From the NCBI GenBank assembly GCA_947311515.1, contig CAMZLB010000031.1:922-64921 (forward strand): a stretch of DNA of 64,000 nt. The letters run 5' to 3'. A program made the position numbers and the translations under genes. This DNA comes from Candidatus Moraniibacteriota bacterium (GTDB taxonomy: Bacteria > Patescibacteriota > Minisyncoccia > Moranbacterales > GCA-2747515). Each line of letters opens with the position of its first letter. Positions within the stretch are counted from its first letter, which is position 1. Positions 4,537-52,941 of the stretch are shown in pieces. The notes beneath the pieces were generated by a model. That model saw only the letters and a program-made list of their open reading frames with translations, was not told the origin of the DNA and made no database searches.

Positions 4537-5817
4537 TTACTTACTTTTTACATTAGCTATATCTTCAAATTTACTTTTCATAGTTGGATTTCCTCGTGTT
4601 ACTTTTTTTATAGTCAAGGTCTCCGCTTTAGCATTAGCAAGACGAAGATTATTTTCTGATGACCATAAAGCATCTTTTGTTTTTTGTAAATGATTTATAG
4701 TTTTATCTATTTCATCGATAGCTGTTTTGAATTTACGACTTGCTAGATCATAATTTTTTGCAAACCCTTCTTTAAATTTATTCATATTATCCTCAAAGTC
4801 ACTAATATCAATATTCTGATTTCTTACTAAAGCGAGTTCAACCTTGTATTTTAGCGAATTTAAGGCAGCATCACGAAGTATCGTAATGATTGGAATAAAA
4901 AACTGCGGTCTAATTACATACATTTTTGGGTACTTATAAGAAACATCAACTATACCGGAATTGTAAAGTTCACTTTCTATTTCCAATAGAGAAACAAGTA
5001 CTGCATATTCACATTTTTTATTTATTCTATCTTTATTGAGTTTTTGTAGAAAATCTTCATTTTTCTTCTTATTCAAAGTTTTTTCTTCTTCATTTTTCAT
5101 TTCAAACATTATAGAAATAATTTCATTTCCTGATTCATCAGTTTCACGATAAATATAGTCACCCTTATTTCCACCACTAACATCATTATCCTTTTCAAAA
5201 TAGGAATTTTGAAAAGCAGTCGCACGGAGCTTATTAAATTCAGTTTCACAGTGTTGTTCAAGTGTTTCACCGATCATTTTTGTAGAAAGCTTAAGTTTCA
5301 TGTCCTTACGAAGAGCAATTTCTTCATCTCTTGCTTTGATTATTTCATCTTTTGCTTTAATTTTTGCAAAAAACTTTTCCTCTATAGATTTCTCCAATAA
5401 TTTTTTCTCTATTTCTTTATTTCTTAATTCACTAATTAACTTATCTCGTTCTTTTTCTATTTTTATTGTAGCTTGTATTATATCAATTTTTTTTTCTGCA
5501 TTAACTTTATCAAGTTTTGAATTTAATTCAGAAATTTCAATATTTTTTCTTGTTATTTCTCCATTTAATTCATCTTTTAATTTAGAGTGTAGATTTGATA
5601 TTTCTAAATCTTTTTTTGCAATTTTTTCTTGTAACTTATTCTCAAGGTTAACTCTTAAGAGTTTAATTTCACTATCTTTCTCTTTTTCTATAGATTTTAA
5701 TCTATCATGAATTTCTTCACTAAATTGACTATCACGAACTTGTTTTACTATGCTAGCAAAGTCAGTTTCATCAATTTTGAAAAGCTTCTTACAATGTGGA
5801 CATTTTATATCTTTCAT
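4537..5817 (-). CDS. DUF2130-like protein: N-terminal CxxC zinc-ribbon, long coiled coil, conserved C-terminal domain
   Basis: [29 protein letters not shown] at the N-terminus. About 150 aa of K/E-rich heptads. C-terminal block ...[11 protein letters not shown]...[13 protein letters not shown]... recalled as DUF2130-type. Confidence 0.4.
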
Positions 5818-45227: not shown

Positions 45228-45449
45228 TGACTTCTTTTATGATTATTTTGCTATTGTTCATTTCAAAACAAATTTCACCAATTTAATTAACTCATTTTTG
45301 CTAATTTTATTTGTCAGCATTTACCACGTTATTTACATTTCTTCCAAATAAAAAAATAATTGTTCTAAATAGTATTCCCATCTATTCCTTTATGTGACTT
45401 AACTGTATTATAGTAATTTACAAATCCTATCAATTCTTTTTTTATGATA

Positions 45450-46390
45450 TCTATTTTTAAATTCAGTTTTGTTATATCACATTTACATTAAAGTTTTAAT
45501 CATTCTTTCTGTCTTTCCATTAGTCCATGAATGTTTAATTTTATAAATCTTTGCTCAATATTATTACTTCTACATTTTAACATAAAAGCATATTTCTCAC
45601 TATTTTCTTTGTCTTTCGACATCTAGATTATCAAAATGAGTTAGTAAAAGTTCAAAGTTACACTGAAGTGTCCTAATTAATTTTTGTAATTTCTTGTATT
45701 GTTGATGTTCCTCAGTGTACTTCAATTTATCTAAACTTGAAATAGCTTCTTGTTTTATTTTAGAAAAAAAGAATTTTCTCAGTAAGGTTTTTAATTATTT
45801 TACTCTTAGTCCTTACAGAAGGAATTATTTGTCTAGCTCTAGAATATTTATGAAATACACATAACTGTACCTTTGGAAAAACTTATCTAAGACTTTTAGT
45901 GATCCCATATATCCATCACAGTGAAAATCTTTATGGTACTAGGTAAATCTCACTAAGAACTGATTTTATGAGATTTGAGTATAACTCAGAGCTTTCTTCG
46001 AGAAATACTTTTCAATTGATAATATCTAATGTTTTAATATCAAATAATATCAGAAAAACAATATCCTTATCTCTGTATTTTAACCAAGTTCCATCTAGGG
46101 CATAGTAACCTAACCTAATTGAATTTAGCCATTTAGTAATTTCAAATTGCTCAGGAATTCTTTCGATGTATTGTTCAAAATATTTTATTAAAACTTTTTT
46201 TAGTAAGACACTTTTATTAAACCAACTACTAAATATTTTATAAACACTATTTAAATAAAGCGATTGTAAATATATCCCTAATTTACCCTAAGAATAACCT
46301 AAAATCAATGTTTTGAAACTACTAATTGATTACCAGTGTCTAAAATTTAGACAACTAGCACGATCTCCTTGTTTGCCCCATACAAAATTA
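45450..46390 (-). mobile_element. Degraded IS256-family (mutator-type) transposase remnant, multiple frameshifts/stops
   Basis: Minus-strand fragments in different frames: YALDGTWLKYRDKD (first D region), FHCDGYMGSLKVL (second D), VFPKVQLCVFHKYSRA (compare the IS256-family motif Q-R-C-x-x-H-x-x-R-N). No ORF above 60 aa. Confidence 0.5.
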
Positions 46391-47277
46391 TTAATAAATT
46401 TTAATAAGCTTTGCTCGATAATATAGACGTTTTAATGAAGTATATTTTGGTGTGCAAGTATATAAAGTTAGTATTGGTTCATCAGTTTTTTTAAGAATTT
46501 CTTCAACTCCTTTATCATTTGGTTTAACCACTCCACTTTCAACAATTTCATACTCAAAAACATGCTGATCATAATGTACTTTTACTTTGTCACTTTTTTT
46601 AATTTGTCTAAATCAATAAAAGCTGTTCTAGCCGGATTATTTCCAAATTTCCAGCGATGTCCTGATATTACTAAATTTCCTTTTTCGCCCAGCATAGCCA
46701 TAGTTTTATGTCGGCCCAGACCTCTGTCCAAATCACTATCTTGAATTCCATTAACAATTGGAGCTTTTATTTTTACTTTCTCTGTATTCACTTCCAACCA
46801 AAATGTCCCCAAATCAGCTTCAGTAAACTCTTTTTTCTTTTCTTTTTTTTGATTATCACTTCCCTTATCATTTTTAACTTCCACTACTACCTCCTGGCTA
46901 TCAACATCTTTTCTCTCATCTACAGCAACATTTCTTTCTCCAAAAAACCACATCCAAAATAAAATATAGCCAACAACAAAAACTAGTAATATAATCCATT
47001 TTTTGTGTTTGAAAGTAATCACTTTAAGCCATTTTAAAATAGCCTTTAGACGACTAATAATCTTATCACTGAATTTATTTTTCTGCCAAATTTTCTTAAT
47101 TTTATCAATCCAAATTTTGCACCAAGGTTTAATTTTTTGTATCAACAAAACATATTTTTTCCGAGAAAAATTATAAATTTTAACCAATCTTTTTTTAATA
47201 CTAGTAATATTCTTACTTACAAATTTCCACACCATTTGTATATATTTTTTTACTATATTAAAAATTTTATTAGACAT
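46391..47277 (-). pseudogene. Sortase-family transpeptidase, split by frameshift at poly-A7 tract
   Basis: N-terminal TM. ...APIVNGIQDSDLDRGLGRH...GNLVISGHRWKF... ends at 46582. Downstream, shifted by -1: DKVKVHYDQHVFEYEIVESGVVKPND...ILTLYTCTPKY (TLxTC catalytic Cys) to stop at 46391. Adding one A to the A7 run at 46594-46600 fuses both parts. Confidence 0.65.
46594..46600 (-). repeat. Poly-A(7) homopolymer (T7 on plus) at the sortase frameshift site
   Basis: cacTTTTTTTaatttg on plus strand. Confidence 0.6.
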
Positions 47278-47635
47278 TGACTTTGGATACTTAGTTGATA
47301 TGGATAATACTAAAAACTAGAACATTCTTAAAAAATTAAGTTAAGCGTGGAAAGGTCCAATCTTTGCAAAGCCACACATACTTCGTAGTTTTAGTGAAAT
47401 AGGAACAGATAAATATTAAGACTAGAACTTTGCACGCGAATATAAGCATATAATCTAGCAAAGATTCGACCTCCACATTCACCAAATTCCTGTAAGGATT
47501 AGTTTCTACAAATGTCAAACTTTTCCTCATAAACAACCTATTTTTGCGTGCGAACTGTTGATACTTTTTTTTATTCTATCATAAAAATTTTCTAATTTAA
47601 ATAAATTTTATCATAGAACTATAGCTACACATATT

Positions 47636-50600
47636 CTAAAATATTTCAGAGCTTTTAACAATCTCCCAAATAGTTTTCCACCAATTCTCTCCAGTTTTAG
47701 CTAGTTTCTCTTCAGTATTGTTATAACCAAAGTCTGCTTTAGTATAATCCTGTCCTTCTCTTAAAGTCAATTTAATTTTATTGTTTAAATTACCACCTTT
47801 TTCATAGGTTTCTATAAAATGTCTCACATCATGTTTTTTTACAATAACTTTAAACTTACCTTTTGGAAGAATATCAAATTTATATTTACCATACTTATCG
47901 GTCTTTGTTTTCCAAATGTAATCATCATCAGTGCCAAATTTATTGTCTGGCCCAACCCAAATCAATTTAACATGAATATCTTCTAATCCTTTCTCATCTT
48001 TATCTTGTTTACCATCTCCGTCTTTGTCCAACCAAATGTAATTTCCGATGGAACTATCTCTCTCAGCTTTTTCTGTTCTATTCCATACTGTCTGATCTTC
48101 CCCGTTGATAGTATCATTATCCGTTACTACTGGTTCTTGTCCTCCAGTAATATCATCACTAAAATCTCCATCACCATTAGCATCCCAATGAGCACTAGCT
48201 TGATTTTCTACAGTTTTCATTTCAGCAGGAACAGTTGTCCTGTAAACCAAAACAACTTCATTTAAAGAATCATCTTCATTAGTCCCTCTTGGATCTGGAG
48301 CGATATCTCCTTCCCACCTCACCCTATTTTCCGCCACATCGTAGGTACAAACTGAAGTTACAGAAGCACCTCTTGCCTCACAAGTAAAACTATTTGCTAC
48401 GTAGGTCGTTCCAGCTGGAACATCATCGAGAATTTGTGTAGCAATAGCCGTCATATTTCCGTCGTTAATCCAAACCATTGTCCATTCTATTTCATTCTCT
48501 CCAGTTTCTCCAACAGTTTTTATAGCATGGGGTGGATCAAAAACATTAGCGTAAAGAGCATAAAATCCAGCATCTATAGATGTATTATTTTCTCCAGAAT
48601 GCAAATGTACAACATCCGTTGTTAATGTATTAATATTGATATCACTATCTTTTGTTGTGTCTCCACCTTGATTTTTATCAGTTGGATTATGATCTGCTGG
48701 TGGTGTAAATTGCACTTGATAATCGCCTGGCAAAAGATTTTCAAAAAGATAATCTCCATTTGAGCCAGTAGTTATAGTATAGGGTGTCCCAGGATTAGCT
48801 GGATCGTCAACTGGATTTCCTGCTCCATCCAATAATTCTACTAAAATACCTTCTAAGCCTGGTTCCCAATCTTGTTGAATACCATCCCTTTGATCATCTC
48901 GCCAAACTTTATCGCCAAGAGAAACCTGCTGCGATATACCTGCATCCAAAGAAGTTACTATGTCTCCAGAAGCCAATGTTACAACATCACTTCGCTTAGT
49001 CACAACATCTATATCAGAATCTATAGTGTCATCGCCTCCGACATTCTGTATTGAAACGCTATATCCATTTGGCAAATTTAATTCTATTTGATATTGCCCT
49101 GGCATTAAATGGATAAACTCATATTCACCATTGACTCCAGTGACTACCGTGTAAGGAGTGCCTGGATTATTTGGATTGTCCACTGGATTACCATCTCCGT
49201 CTAAAAGTTTTACTACTACTCCCTCTGCACCATTTTCTCCTGCATCCTGCAAACCATTAAGATTATCATCTAGCCAAATTTTATCTCCGATAGTAACTGT
49301 TTCATACATCCCCGTATCAATCGTATTATTATCCTCATTGACTTCCAAGCTAATAGTATCCGTCGTACCTACCTGTCCATTAATATTTGTTACATCTGAA
49401 TCAACAGCATCATCACCTCCTTGATTAGCTGGAGAATAAGAATGATTTGCTGAGGCAGTAAACCTTACACGATAATCTCCATGATTTAAACCTTCAAATA
49501 AATACCATCCATTAACATCTGTTGTTACTACATATGGTTGTCCATTTACTGGATTGTTCACAGGATTTCCTGCTCCATCTAATAATTCAACTTGCACTCC
49601 TTCCAATCCATTCTCGCCAGCATCCTGAATACCGTTAGCATTACTATCTGTCCATACTCTATTACCAATAGAACTGCCCACAATGCTAACCGCTTCTGAA
49701 TTAGACAATACGGGTAGAGTAACTCCTGTAGCCGAAGCACCTGCTGAATTAGAATAAATATCTCCGGACAAATTATTTTCTATTTTCATTTTCAATTGCA
49801 ATTGACACGTAGCGTCTGCCTCCATAGATGGACCTACTGCTCTCACAGCTGTTACATCACTTCGATTCATTCCAGATGGAGGATCAGTCATAGTTCCTTC
49901 TTGCCAAATTGTTTGTGCGCCACCAATAACGTTAGCTAGACCAACACTTGGCGCAATATTAATGTTAGTTGGCATCTCCGTTGTGTAATAGTATTTAACA
50001 CCCCCATTTACAGAAATATCACATAAAGCTGGTGATTCTGGATGGGCGACTAAAGACATAGAAGTAAATTCTTCAGTACCATGATAATTAGTTCCAGGAT
50101 TTCGTTCCACGGTAATATTATTAAAATGTATCGCCCCTGTATTTCCATCTCCTGTAAAAGGTAGAATATCAATCACATCTAAATCTGTTAAATCTCCTGG
50201 TTTTCCATTTCTAAAATCAACTAAATAATCAATGTCCTGACTAGCTACCGTACGTTCTCTTTGAGTAGCGCCCACTGTTGATTTAATAATATTTAAACTA
50301 GCTGGCACTGAGATATTTATTCCTACTTCTGATTGCGCTTGACTTACCACAGTAAAATCAGTTGAAACTTCTATAGTTGTAACATTATTAGCAATACCCA
50401 CCGGTGCTGAAGCTTTTACTTTTGCTTCATAAACAATATCTGAAAAATTACCGTTAGCACCTACTACCCCAAAATCCCATAACAAAACTGTATTTACGTT
50501 ATCATCACAGGTAAGTGAAACATCAACATCGTTACAAGTACCAATAACCGGCTCATTGGCTCCTGTTGTACTTCCATCAATATATTCAAATCCTTCCGGT

Positions 50601-51817
50601 AAAACATCTTTAATGACCAAATGCCCACTTTCAGCAAGACCAGCATCATTTGTATAAGTATAAGCTAAAGTATAAGAGACTGTATCACTAGGCACAGCTG
50701 TGGAGGTTGAAGCTGTCTTATTTATACGCGCTTTTGCCCCTGTAAATGTCACTCTATCTCCTCTTGTACCAATTATGGCATCTGGATATTGATTAGGAAT
50801 ATAATTTGTCCCAATAAAAGCATTGTTATTTATTTTATAAGCAAAACAATTAACAATTTCATCTCCATACTGTAGTGGTTGCCCGGTTAATAAATCATTT
50901 GTGCGCACCTTATGATTTAGCCACATAAATAAATAAGCTCCTGGCGGATGAACTACCCCATTGCGAAGTTTAATTTTTATTTTTGTCACCGAACCAATCC
51001 CTTGAGAGTCTGCTCTAGCCTCATCAGCTGTTGCAAACCACCCCCCTATTCCATTACATTCATTTTCAATTTCAGTTTTATATGAAACTGTTTGATCTCC
51101 ACCTCGTGAAGGAAGCCAAGAATTATCTACATAACGAGCCGAATATTCAAATTCATAAGGACCGGGGCTGGCACTATCGCTATAGTCACCGGAATCATGA
51201 CCTATATAATATTTTACTGGATCTGCATTGTTGTTATGAGCATAACCATTATAGCTTGTCTGTATACCAGTATAAAATTGATTGTCTTCAATATCTTGAA
51301 TTTCTAATCGATAAGCATCAATAACATCGCACATCTCCTCTGTAAAATCAGTTCCTCCTGTATTAGTAGAACGTATATTTGTAGAAAATTCATAACCACT
51401 ATTAACCATTCCTTCTCCCGTTCGAACACCCATAGCCCCTCCTGGCCAACTCCAAACACTCGAAGTGTCACCACGATAATATTTACCGAAAGATCCTCGT
51501 AAACCATACAAGGTTAGAGAATAGTCATTATCATTTTCTGATTCATGATTAGCTCCAAAATTTGAATTACCCGTTGGTGTAGTTGGGTCAAAACTTCTTA
51601 ATTTATTTTTTGTTAGCAATACTCCATCATCACTGTTTCCCGTAACACCATAATTTCCTGCTTCAACATCCGAAAGAGGTACAAAAACATTTACCGAACC
51701 AATAGCCGCTATTGCCCTACTGGCTGGCAAATCTCCTCCTGTATACATTTTTGTTGGATAATTATTTAAAGTAGCATCCACATGCGAAACTGTTACACCA
51801 ACATCAGTTCCGCTCAC
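47636..51817 (-). CDS. Giant cell-surface protein, C-terminal 1393-aa segment. Contains a DUF11-like domain, 3.5 SdrD-B/Cna-B-type repeats and a C-terminal LAKTG motif.
   Basis: Tandem about 120-aa units starting GNRVWTDSNANGIQDAGENG..., GDKIWLDDNLNGLQDAGENG..., GDKVWRDDQRDGIQ.... Partial fourth unit GNYIWLDKDGDGKQD. ...EEKLAKTGENWWKTIWEIVKSSEIF end. ORF begins at GTG directly after an in-frame TAA. Confidence 0.7.
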   Translation of the reverse strand: MSGTDVGVTVSHVDATLNNYPTKMYTGGDLPASRAIAAIGSVNVFVPLSDVEAGNYGVTGNSDDGVLLTKNKLRSFDPTTPTGNSNFGANHESENDNDYSLTLYGLRGSFGKYYRGDTSSVWSWPGGAMGVRTGEGMVNSGYEFSTNIRSTNTGGTDFTEEMCDVIDAYRLEIQDIEDNQFYTGIQTSYNGYAHNNNADPVKYYIGHDSGDYSDSASPGPYEFEYSARYVDNSWLPSRGGDQTVSYKTEIENECNGIGGWFATADEARADSQGIGSVTKIKIKLRNGVVHPPGAYLFMWLNHKVRTNDLLTGQPLQYGDEIVNCFAYKINNNAFIGTNYIPNQYPDAIIGTRGDRVTFTGAKARINKTASTSTAVPSDTVSYTLAYTYTNDAGLAESGHLVIKDVLPEGFEYIDGSTTGANEPVIGTCNDVDVSLTCDDNVNTVLLWDFGVVGANGNFSDIVYEAKVKASAPVGIANNVTTIEVSTDFTVVSQAQSEVGINISVPASLNIIKSTVGATQRERTVASQDIDYLVDFRNGKPGDLTDLDVIDILPFTGDGNTGAIHFNNITVERNPGTNYHGTEEFTSMSLVAHPESPALCDISVNGGVKYYYTTEMPTNINIAPSVGLANVIGGAQTIWQEGTMTDPPSGMNRSDVTAVRAVGPSMEADATCQLQLKMKIENNLSGDIYSNSAGASATGVTLPVLSNSEAVSIVGSSIGNRVWTDSNANGIQDAGENGLEGVQVELLDGAGNPVNNPVNGQPYVVTTDVNGWYLFEGLNHGDYRVRFTASANHSYSPANQGGDDAVDSDVTNINGQVGTTDTISLEVNEDNNTIDTGMYETVTIGDKIWLDDNLNGLQDAGENGAEGVVVKLLDGDGNPVDNPNNPGTPYTVVTGVNGEYEFIHLMPGQYQIELNLPNGYSVSIQNVGGDDTIDSDIDVVTKRSDVVTLASGDIVTSLDAGISQQVSLGDKVWRDDQRDGIQQDWEPGLEGILVELLDGAGNPVDDPANPGTPYTITTGSNGDYLFENLLPGDYQVQFTPPADHNPTDKNQGGDTTKDSDININTLTTDVVHLHSGENNTSIDAGFYALYANVFDPPHAIKTVGETGENEIEWTMVWINDGNMTAIATQILDDVPAGTTYVANSFTCEARGASVTSVCTYDVAENRVRWEGDIAPDPRGTNEDDSLNEVVLVYRTTVPAEMKTVENQASAHWDANGDGDFSDDITGGQEPVVTDNDTINGEDQTVWNRTEKAERDSSIGNYIWLDKDGDGKQDKDEKGLEDIHVKLIWVGPDNKFGTDDDYIWKTKTDKYGKYKFDILPKGKFKVIVKKHDVRHFIETYEKGGNLNNKIKLTLREGQDYTKADFGYNNTEEKLAKTGENWWKTIWEIVKSSEIF
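48840..49690 (-). repeat. Tandem about 360-bp coding repeats (SdrD-B-like domains) inside the giant surface protein
   Basis: Three successive units identifiable at DNA and protein level (about 49690, 49330, 48965). Units diverged, not identical. Confidence 0.6.
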
Positions 51818-51832
51818 ACTACAATTTACCTT

Positions 51833-52534
51833 TTAAACTCCCTGATTTTGTGGTATATGCTGGTCTGTGTTAGCTTCATGAATTGAACCTGGTCCACTAA
51901 AAGTTATAGGGTTAGCGCTACCAACATAGCCATCTTGCACGTCATAACGACCATTCATATCGCATCTAACCAACTGCGCATTAGGAGAAATTTCATCCAA
52001 CTGATCTGTAAAAGTAAAGGTGACATCATTTCCCATGGATTCATTCCCCAATAAAGAATAAGTGTTATCCGTTGTACCAACTACCTCATCAGTTTTAATA
52101 TAAAAAATATAATTTAATATATAACCATCAACTTCAGGAGTATTAGGATCCCCATCATCATCATAAGTCATTCCCGTATAAGATCTATACAAACCTTTTT
52201 GCAAATTCCATCGGGGTGACGCTGTAACTGTCAAAGAATATCCATCCGTATCATCAGAAACGGTTGTAGCATTTTGCCCAGAAACTTCAAAAGAAATATC
52301 TCCAGGAGTTGCTCCATTTGGAGTACCCCCCAACACTCTTGCTGTAAATAATAAATCCTCAGCATAAGTAGCTGTATTAGTAAAATTATTTCTAACACAA
52401 GTGAGGGTTAATTTGTCCTGAGAAATACTTGATTGATTTGAATCACAAGAACCTGGTAAATTTGTCCATTCATATTCCCCCGTGGCTGGCAAGGTTCCAA
52501 CTATAGCAACCTCTTCCTCTGGACCATTTTGCAC
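51833..52534 (-). CDS. Middle segment (233 aa) of the same giant surface protein
   Basis: Same frame as 47636..51817, separated only by TAA at 51833-51835 (...QNQGV*KVNCSVSGTDVG...). T/S/G/N/D-rich beta-type composition. Confidence 0.55.
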   Translation of the reverse strand: MQNGPEEEVAIVGTLPATGEYEWTNLPGSCDSNQSSISQDKLTLTCVRNNFTNTATYAEDLLFTARVLGGTPNGATPGDISFEVSGQNATTVSDDTDGYSLTVTASPRWNLQKGLYRSYTGMTYDDDGDPNTPEVDGYILNYIFYIKTDEVVGTTDNTYSLLGNESMGNDVTFTFTDQLDEISPNAQLVRCDMNGRYDVQDGYVGSANPITFSGPGSIHEANTDQHIPQNQGV

Positions 52535-52875
52535 ACCATTCCAACTCCAACCAGCTGATACCTCAAATACATCTTCGTCCTCACTATCAAATCACCACTA
52601 TAGGTATCATCACTGGGATCACTAGTGGTTCCATTGTTAGAATATCCTGGGTCATTAGCAAAATCACAACCGTCCGTTGGGTCAGCTGGACAAATATTAA
52701 CATCATTAACTAAATCGCCAACATTATTTAAAGGTCCTTTTATCCCGCCAGTCTGAGTGTATTTAGTTGTTATATTTAAACTAGCTGCGAAAGCATTATC
52801 TAGTGAGTACACAAAAACCCCACTAATGATAATAGTCATTATCAACAACTTACCTAAAATATTTTTCATTTTCAT
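52501..52875 (-). CDS. N-terminal segment (signal peptide plus first 100 aa) of the giant surface protein
   Basis: MKMKNILGKLLIMTIIISGVFVYSLDNAFA signal peptide. Reading continues in the -1 frame at about 52585-52595 (...DDTYSGD | FDSEDEDVFEVSAGWSWNG...) into the 233-aa ORF. Confidence 0.55.
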   Translation of the reverse strand: MKMKNILGKLLIMTIIISGVFVYSLDNAFAASLNITTKYTQTGGIKGPLNNVGDLVNDVNICPADPTDGCDFANDPGYSNNGTTSDPSDDTYSGDLIVRTKMYLRYQLVGVGMVCKMVQRKRLL

Positions 52876-52910: not shown

Positions 52911-52941
52911 ATTATACCACCCCCCCCTTTAGCTATAGCAA
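52911..52941 (-). promoter_or_regulatory. Candidate promoter of giant surface protein gene: TTGCTA-19 nt-TATAAT with G8 homopolymer inside spacer
   Basis: Minus-strand read: TTGCTAtagctaaaGGGGGGGGtggTATAATataaatatcttagaaaaataataacaatataaaaaATG. C8 on plus at 52920-52927. Confidence 0.45.

Follow-up and report, generated by a model that had tools for sequence, protein, structure and literature searches.

A giant LAKTG adhesin and its neighbouring sortase form a probable, recently inactivated pseudogene pair in a Candidatus Moraniibacteriota genome

The sortase gene is split between two reading frames

We analysed a 64-kb stretch of DNA from a Candidatus Moraniibacteriota bacterium (hereafter the window), in which a sortase gene lies next to a giant LAKTG adhesin gene on the minus strand. 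The 5' part of the sortase gene is an ORF of 231 aa (46582..47277, minus strand; ATG at 47277, stop at 46582), which ends in ...LDKLKKVTK* (...FIDLDKLKKVTK*). In its product, a long cytoplasmic helix rich in Lys is followed by a membrane anchor (~aa 92-114), and a linker then leads into the first half of the catalytic barrel. His207 is found in this ORF, within the motif LVISGHR (46674..46654). The 3' remainder (46391..46593, minus strand) continues in the -1 frame, reads DKVKVHY...ILTLYTCTPKYTSLKRLYYRAKLIKIY (DKVKVHYDQHVFEYEIVESGVVKPNDKGVEEILKKTDEPILTLYTCTPKYTSLKRLYYRAKLIKIY) to 46391 and encodes four strands of the barrel; both Cys275, in the motif TLYTC (46468..46454), and Arg284 fall within it. 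As encoded, translation that begins at the upstream ATG does not yield this remainder. A first, sequence-only reading of the locus had placed the N-terminal half, with its transmembrane anchor and LVISGHR, in the 231-aa ORF stopping at 46582, and these coordinates were correct; its assignment of the catalytic Cys half to the -1 frame as far as 46391 was likewise borne out.

Addition of one A to an A7 run at the junction of the two parts yields a fused sortase of 295 aa. The fused protein matched the Pfam Sortase family (PF04203) with 84.4 bits (cut-off 26.6; E = 7e-24) over model positions 4-124 of 125, and passed TIGR01076 with 71.2 bits (cut-off 39.35). Taken separately, the pieces were recognised by a family HMM with E values far beyond chance (2e-61 for the 5' piece and 1e-34 for the 3' piece). 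An AlphaFold model of the repaired sortase predicted a sortase barrel, with pLDDT >90 for the greater part of the catalytic domain and a helix at residues 92-114, and all the top PDB fold matches to this model were sortases. An eight-stranded barrel and an N-terminal membrane anchor are both present in the predicted structure. His207, Cys275 and Arg284 correspond to invariant columns of the homologue alignment. Because the frame break sits before strands 231-294, which bear Cys275 and Arg284, the 231-aa product must be inactive as an enzyme; the His-Cys-Arg triad is not on one polypeptide as encoded, and is whole in the repaired reading only.

The sortase carries a second lesion, which is missense (P196L). 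Codon 196 is CTG (Leu) in the window (46690..46692, minus strand) and CCA in the closest orthologues, and Pro occupies this position in 41/41 homologues.

The adhesin gene is interrupted at two sites

The LAKTG adhesin pseudogene spans 47636..52875 (minus strand) and would have 1746 codons once repaired. The repaired protein combines a signal peptide and a conserved head with DUF11/SpaA-like domains and four SdrD-B domains, and has LAKTG at its C-terminus. At present the gene consists of three ORFs on the minus strand (52875..52501, 52534..51833 and 51817..47636). Alignment with four orthologues located the two interruptions. At codon ~101 (52573..52574, minus strand) the orthologues read ACC AAT GAT (Thr-Asn-Asp) whereas the window reads ACG AA- GAT, a 1-nt deletion in the Asn codon. 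At codon 348 (51833..51835, minus strand) a C to T change gives an in-frame TAA where the four orthologues have Gln (CAA or CAG). Both lesions are away from any homopolymer, and the idea of a homopolymer-gated adhesin therefore fails. No full-length intact adhesin orthologue was seen among 13 matches, several of which were clipped by contig ends or uninspected.

Three other interpretations of the adhesin were rejected. A frameshift at TTT 52586-88 is contradicted by the orthologue alignment, which keeps the first frame through 'SGDLIVRT'. Horizontal acquisition, considered in view of the 37-39% GC of the gene, does not agree with a GC3 of 0.20-0.23, which equals that of the housekeeping genes. 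Truncation of the C-terminus, considered in view of the missing hydrophobic tail, is at odds with the conservation of the short tail in three orthologues.

The sorting motif LAKTG (47690..47704, minus strand) is followed by a 17-aa tail, ENWWKTIWEIVKSSEIF, which is kept in the closest orthologues. In the window (47636-47689) and in the related loci L002 (~425-473) and L003 (~775-822), no more than 15-17 residues of sorting signal follow LAKTG. This signal is Trp-rich and amphipathic (ENWWxx[IFV]WE[IMT]VK...), without a long hydrophobic stretch or a basic tail, and a canonical tail (LAKTGDNGLLWIIGLLPILGIGIKLKK...) is seen in relatives that are further removed. Given its conservation, the short tail is presumably functional.

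A run of eight G residues (G8; 52920..52927, minus strand) lies upstream of the adhesin start, directly 5' of TGGTATAAT (52911-52919). The latter resembles an extended -10 element, and with the run at eight G the spacer between TTGCTA and TATAAT is 19 nt. This is the sole G/C run of at least 7 in the 64-kb, 28%-GC window. Its length is equal in both of the Logan assemblies described below, and three orthologous adhesins have no such run upstream.

The adhesin and sortase form a conserved cassette

An alignment-based scan of JGI metagenomes and of the species genomes in GTDB gave 32 related sortase loci; a contig scan with the single protein had given no match. Loci with informative titles were mostly from Candidatus Moraniibacteriota, with some from Pacebacteria and other Patescibacteria, and the closest clade is ~93-97% identical to the window's sortase across the catalytic-domain segment from the His to the Arg. 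In 13 distinct related loci, what stands immediately upstream of the sortase is a giant ORF with an LAxTG end (LAKTG, LAVTG, LAQTG or LATTG), and this bears out the pairing of the sortase with the LAKTG adhesin that had been proposed from the window. The window and the relatives' loci have only the adhesin C-terminus and the sortase in common, and the flanking genes differ. Comparison of the loci supports the view that the LAKTG adhesin would be the cognate partner of the sortase, the two forming a conserved functional unit. Five cassette-bearing GTDB MAGs (L004, L013, L015, L017 and L019) are titled Micavibrio, Bdellovibrionales or Gammaproteobacteria (TPA_asm), and are probably mislabelled bins.

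An enzyme placed next to its own substrate is also seen in srtB-isdC and in class C pilus islands, and a pair that is conserved as a unit while its flanks differ is found in dedicated sortase-substrate cassettes. Unlike srtB-isdC and the pilus islands, the cassette in the window has as its substrate one giant adhesin that bears SdrD-B repeats and is not a pilin, and its clade has the unusual short sorting-signal tail.

Elsewhere in the window, ~48 other ORFs gave end-to-end Pfam matches, and none of them was split. The intact genes include those for PolA, UvrA, NusA, trigger factor, pyruvate kinase and a MurE-like ligase, as well as FemAB, PilM, M24 and M48 peptidases and Lgt. Three frame-breaking lesions are thus found in ~6 kb, as against none in ~45 kb; by our own arithmetic, the probability of this is (6/51)^3, or ~0.002, if lesions were evenly spread. 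Overlapping same-strand pairs at 55.5-57.7, 61.4-63.8 and 3.1-4.4 kb were considered as further split genes and rejected, as they encode distinct full-length Pfam domains. Neither a second sortase nor another LAxTG-ended ORF was found within the 64-kb window. Searches gave no tRNA or Rfam element close to the locus, and no terminator-like site in 46.2-53.2 kb. The 1.15 kb directly 3' of the sortase (45237-46390) has no ORF >91 aa, gave no Pfam, tRNA or Rfam match, and is without similarity to the genes that flank the sortase in relatives.

The sortase resembles class E enzymes in its substrate

The LAxTG-type substrate had led to a description of the sortase as following the class E pattern. 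This holds for the motif, which is class-E-like, and an LAxTG substrate is indicated by genomic association, both by the adjacent LAKTG and by the 13 related loci. Membership of the class did not hold, however, as the sortase scored 90.2 bits against the NCBIfam class E model NF033747 (cut-off 160), although this was the top-scoring subclass. Scores against the class D models NF033746 (70.9 bits, cut-off 165) and NF058671 (84 bits, cut-off 140) were also too low; class D and class C scores nearly match that of class E, and the generic sortase model alone is passed. The best solved relative is a class D enzyme, CpSrtD of Clostridium perfringens (PDB 4D70), which ranks first both by sequence (E = 2.4e-15) and by fold (31% identity, rmsd 2.3 A), and solved SrtE structures were weaker sequence matches (2e-8 and 2e-5). 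A fold search did not separate classes A, D and E, with SrtE tying with class A close behind CpSrtD.

Tyr229 in the beta3/beta4 loop of SrtE1 has been proposed to select Ala at P3, and its equivalents are F92 in CpSrtD and A104 in SaSrtA (PMC5148588). The A104H mutation is reported to shift the specificity of SaSrtA towards LAETG; CpSrtD does not process LAETG (PMC5148588), whereas the window's sortase family is paired with LAxTG substrates. In the window's sortase, His190 (codon 46708-46710) is invariant in 42 family members, and in the sequence alignment it aligns gaplessly with the CpSrtD Phe, replacing the class E Tyr; this Phe is at chain position 91, and was taken as the F92 of PMC5148588. 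The position corresponds to the S3 subsite, and in this family the preference for Ala at P3 may be set by His190.

The class E enzymes SrtE1 and SrtE2 of Streptomyces coelicolor and SrtE of Thermobifida fusca share the LAxTG signal with the window's cassette family, and have an N-terminal cytoplasmic segment and a membrane anchor, as does the window's sortase. Their hosts are Actinobacteria, whereas the host of the window's sortase belongs to the Patescibacteria. We conclude that the sortase is a Patescibacteria-type LAxTG enzyme and not a curated member of class E, and that, judged from its sequence, the intact enzyme would probably work like class E on LAxTG.

Independent assemblies show the same lesions

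A Logan contig of 1650 nt from run ERR4221283 is 100% identical to 45727-47376, junction included, and an 18-kb Logan contig from run ERR4221282 shows 1 mismatch in 10.7 kb, with the sortase called at 231 aa. The broken sortase, the three-piece adhesin and the G8 are alike in the two Logan assemblies, and all four lesions are identical in the two separate runs, each of which was assembled by k-mer methods. Among 5.8 billion protein clusters, the sole near-identical cluster consists of truncated forms of 217/231 aa (Logan, NCBI), and no intact near-identical sortase allele was found in this collection. The sortase therefore shows what defines a pseudogene, that is, disruption relative to intact orthologues that is also present in independent data.

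The lesions could be artefacts of sequencing or assembly, in which case the genes would be intact in the organism, with the indels and the stop being consensus errors. MAG assemblies may have indels near homopolymers, and related adhesins in other metagenomes are likewise interrupted. However, the independent k-mer assemblies of the two runs agree over all four lesions, of which one is a substitution and one a missense change, and splits are absent from the ~48 other ORFs. Since the assemblies of two runs show the same split, assembly error is very unlikely, and we regard an artefact as close to negligible.

The A7 run has its normal length at the sortase junction

The junction (46593..46600, minus strand) consists of the A7 run at 46594-46600, which reads cacTTTTTTTaat on the plus strand, and a leftover G at 46593 that belongs to the Gly229 codon. 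The coding-strand codons of the run are ttA AAA AAA (Leu-Lys-Lys). The closest intact orthologues have an identical A7 (TTA AAA AAA) followed by GGA GAT (Gly-Asp). Where these orthologues read AAAAAAA GGA GAT, the window reads AAAAAAA G-T GAC, with one base of the Gly229 codon missing. In each of the 32 related sortase loci the reading frame continues unbroken across the junction. As intact orthologues carry the same A7, this is the normal in-frame length of the tract. The gene had been described as split exactly at the A7 run, which is right as to position, but the tract itself is unaltered.

Gly229 is present in 41/41 sequences of the protein alignment, and is replaced by Ser, Asp or Asn in 3 more distant related loci; Ser229 is found in one distant relative, L046. 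The more parsimonious account is that the lost base would be the G of GGT, since a change from A8 to A7 in a hypothetical AGT ancestor requires one additional non-synonymous step. A/T runs of at least 7 number 142 in the 64-kb window and five in the sortase gene, and 5% of positions in the gene lie within or beside such a run. Because these runs are abundant, the adjacency of the break to the A7 is just mildly surprising.

A homopolymer-gated sortase had been suggested at this junction, and with it coordinated phase variation of surface display. In that case, slipped-strand switching between A7 and A8 would turn the sortase on and off reversibly, perhaps in coordination with the G8 in the adhesin promoter. 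One added A does restore the sortase frame, the 3' half of the gene is still open and conserved, and an orthologue with Ser229 exists; moreover, a frameshift that abuts a homopolymer, with a second homopolymer (the only long G/C run of the window) at the -10 region of the partner gene, is reminiscent of the poly-G and poly-A contingency loci of Neisseria, Campylobacter and Mycoplasma. However, unlike the tracts of contingency loci, the A7 is invariant among relatives and samples and has the wild-type, in-frame length: 0/32 related loci vary or frameshift there, the A7 and the G8 are the same in the assemblies of both runs, and an exact-pattern scan of JGI metagenomes gave no tract-length variants of the window's sortase allele. 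Even with A8 restoring the frame, the ON allele would retain P196L and G229S, both at positions that are invariant in the 41 aligned homologues, and an intact near-identical allele is missing from the protein collection. Also unlike contingency loci, the cassette has further lesions that are irreversible, as no change in tract length can undo the adhesin nonsense codon or its non-homopolymer deletion. Neither gating of the sortase nor coordinated switching of the pair agrees with these data, and we consider reversible phase variation distinctly unlikely.

Selection on the sortase remainder and the age of the lesions

On the branch leading to the window, the changes 3' of the sortase break comprise 6 synonymous and 2 non-synonymous substitutions (dN/dS ~0.09), which departs from neutrality with P~0.0015 by our own binomial estimate and points to purifying selection, and the 3' part has no secondary stop. 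For the adhesin C-terminus, dN/dS is 0.32-0.36 in all pairs, and is no higher in the window than in intact relatives. Since dN/dS is still low, the lesions are probably young relative to the split from the nearest relatives. P196L is the sole hint of relaxed selection.

A low dN/dS would also be expected if the 3' part continued to be translated by slippage. Such recoding could supply a low level of full-length G229S sortase, either through -1 ribosomal slippage on A_AAA_AAA or through transcriptional slippage on the A7. The sequence ttA AAA AAA fits the X_XXY_YYZ pattern of a slippery heptamer, its register is right for a shift into the -1 frame used by the downstream ORF, and the conserved, stop-free 3' part is what recoding predicts. 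Lysine-codon heptamers and long A runs are known to slip, for example in dnaX and in IS elements, and in endosymbionts with AT-rich genomes genes are rescued by slippage during transcription; an A7, however, is short for efficient transcriptional slippage. Features that would accompany programmed frameshifting were not found. The 94 nt 3' of the junction fold no better than shuffled sequences (z -0.57) and so gave no stimulatory RNA structure, inspection of the sequence upstream of the junction gave no Shine-Dalgarno-like element, and the frameshift is not conserved among homologues, as all 32 loci are in frame, which leaves nothing 'programmed' about it. In addition, the sole nearby substrate, the LAKTG adhesin, is itself dead. 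We strongly doubt that recoding explains the split.

Different parts of the cassette show different relationships to the relatives. In the adhesin C-terminus (47654-48114), dS is ~0.25 between the window and L002 and ~0.6 between L002 and L003. In the sortase (46400-46983), the outlier is the window, and L002 and L003 hardly differ from each other. This mosaic signal suggests that recombination may have occurred within the cassette.

Probable joint inactivation of the adhesin and sortase

Taken together, these results indicate that the adhesin and the sortase are probably a recently and jointly inactivated pseudogene pair, and not a homopolymer switch. The 'joint decay' that had been offered as the other option fits the lesions in both genes, the intact junctions of the relatives and the absence of damage from the other ORFs in the window. 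The ancestral arrangement would have been a dedicated sortase-substrate cassette of a low-GC, Moraniibacteriota-like member of the Patescibacteria, in which the giant LAKTG adhesin precedes a membrane-anchored sortase of its own. In the adhesin, the deletion at codon ~101 cuts the signal peptide from the rest of the protein, and together with the TAA at codon 348 leaves no secreted full-length product. In the sortase, the loss of one nucleotide at the Gly229 codon, 3' of the native A7, brings in the stop after 231 residues. Loss of one partner, whichever came first, would have made the other dispensable, and the inactivation events are likely to have been recent.

In annotation, the two genes ought to be marked as pseudogenes, and a class E label is not warranted for the sortase. 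The pair itself represents routine, freshly formed pseudogenes. The analysis also documents a conserved cassette of a giant LAxTG adhesin and its own sortase across the Patescibacteria, with an invariant His at the position of the Ala-recognising Tyr of class E enzymes. Repeated loss or interruption of this cassette in related lineages bears on the remodelling of attachment surfaces by episymbiont-like bacteria.

The opposite possibility is that the cassette is switchable and not dead, with slippage at the A tract (genomic, transcriptional or ribosomal) supplying the sortase and the G8 tuning the adhesin promoter. We give this little credence. If true, Patescibacteria would gain their first described surface switch of the contingency type, and the adhesin interruptions on L023, L024 and L027/L028 would reflect selection for fast loss and regain of a surface structure.

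Those sequences, the closest homologues of the adhesin head, are interrupted separately from the window's gene, by an in-frame TAA on L023 (2848-2850) and by frameshifts on L024 (~5180-5245) and L027 (~1745-1755, equivalent to ~1720-1730 on L028). The interruptions on L023, L024 and L027 represent three metagenomic lineages and lie at different places, none of them at a homopolymer. The adhesin-head homologues on L027 (ERZ23491300 scaffold_1102) and P0052 have outer-membrane beta-barrel and HP_1247-like neighbours, and the source of one such contig names it Sulfurovum sp. Patescibacteria may therefore share the head domain with Campylobacterota, or mis-binning may account for these contigs.
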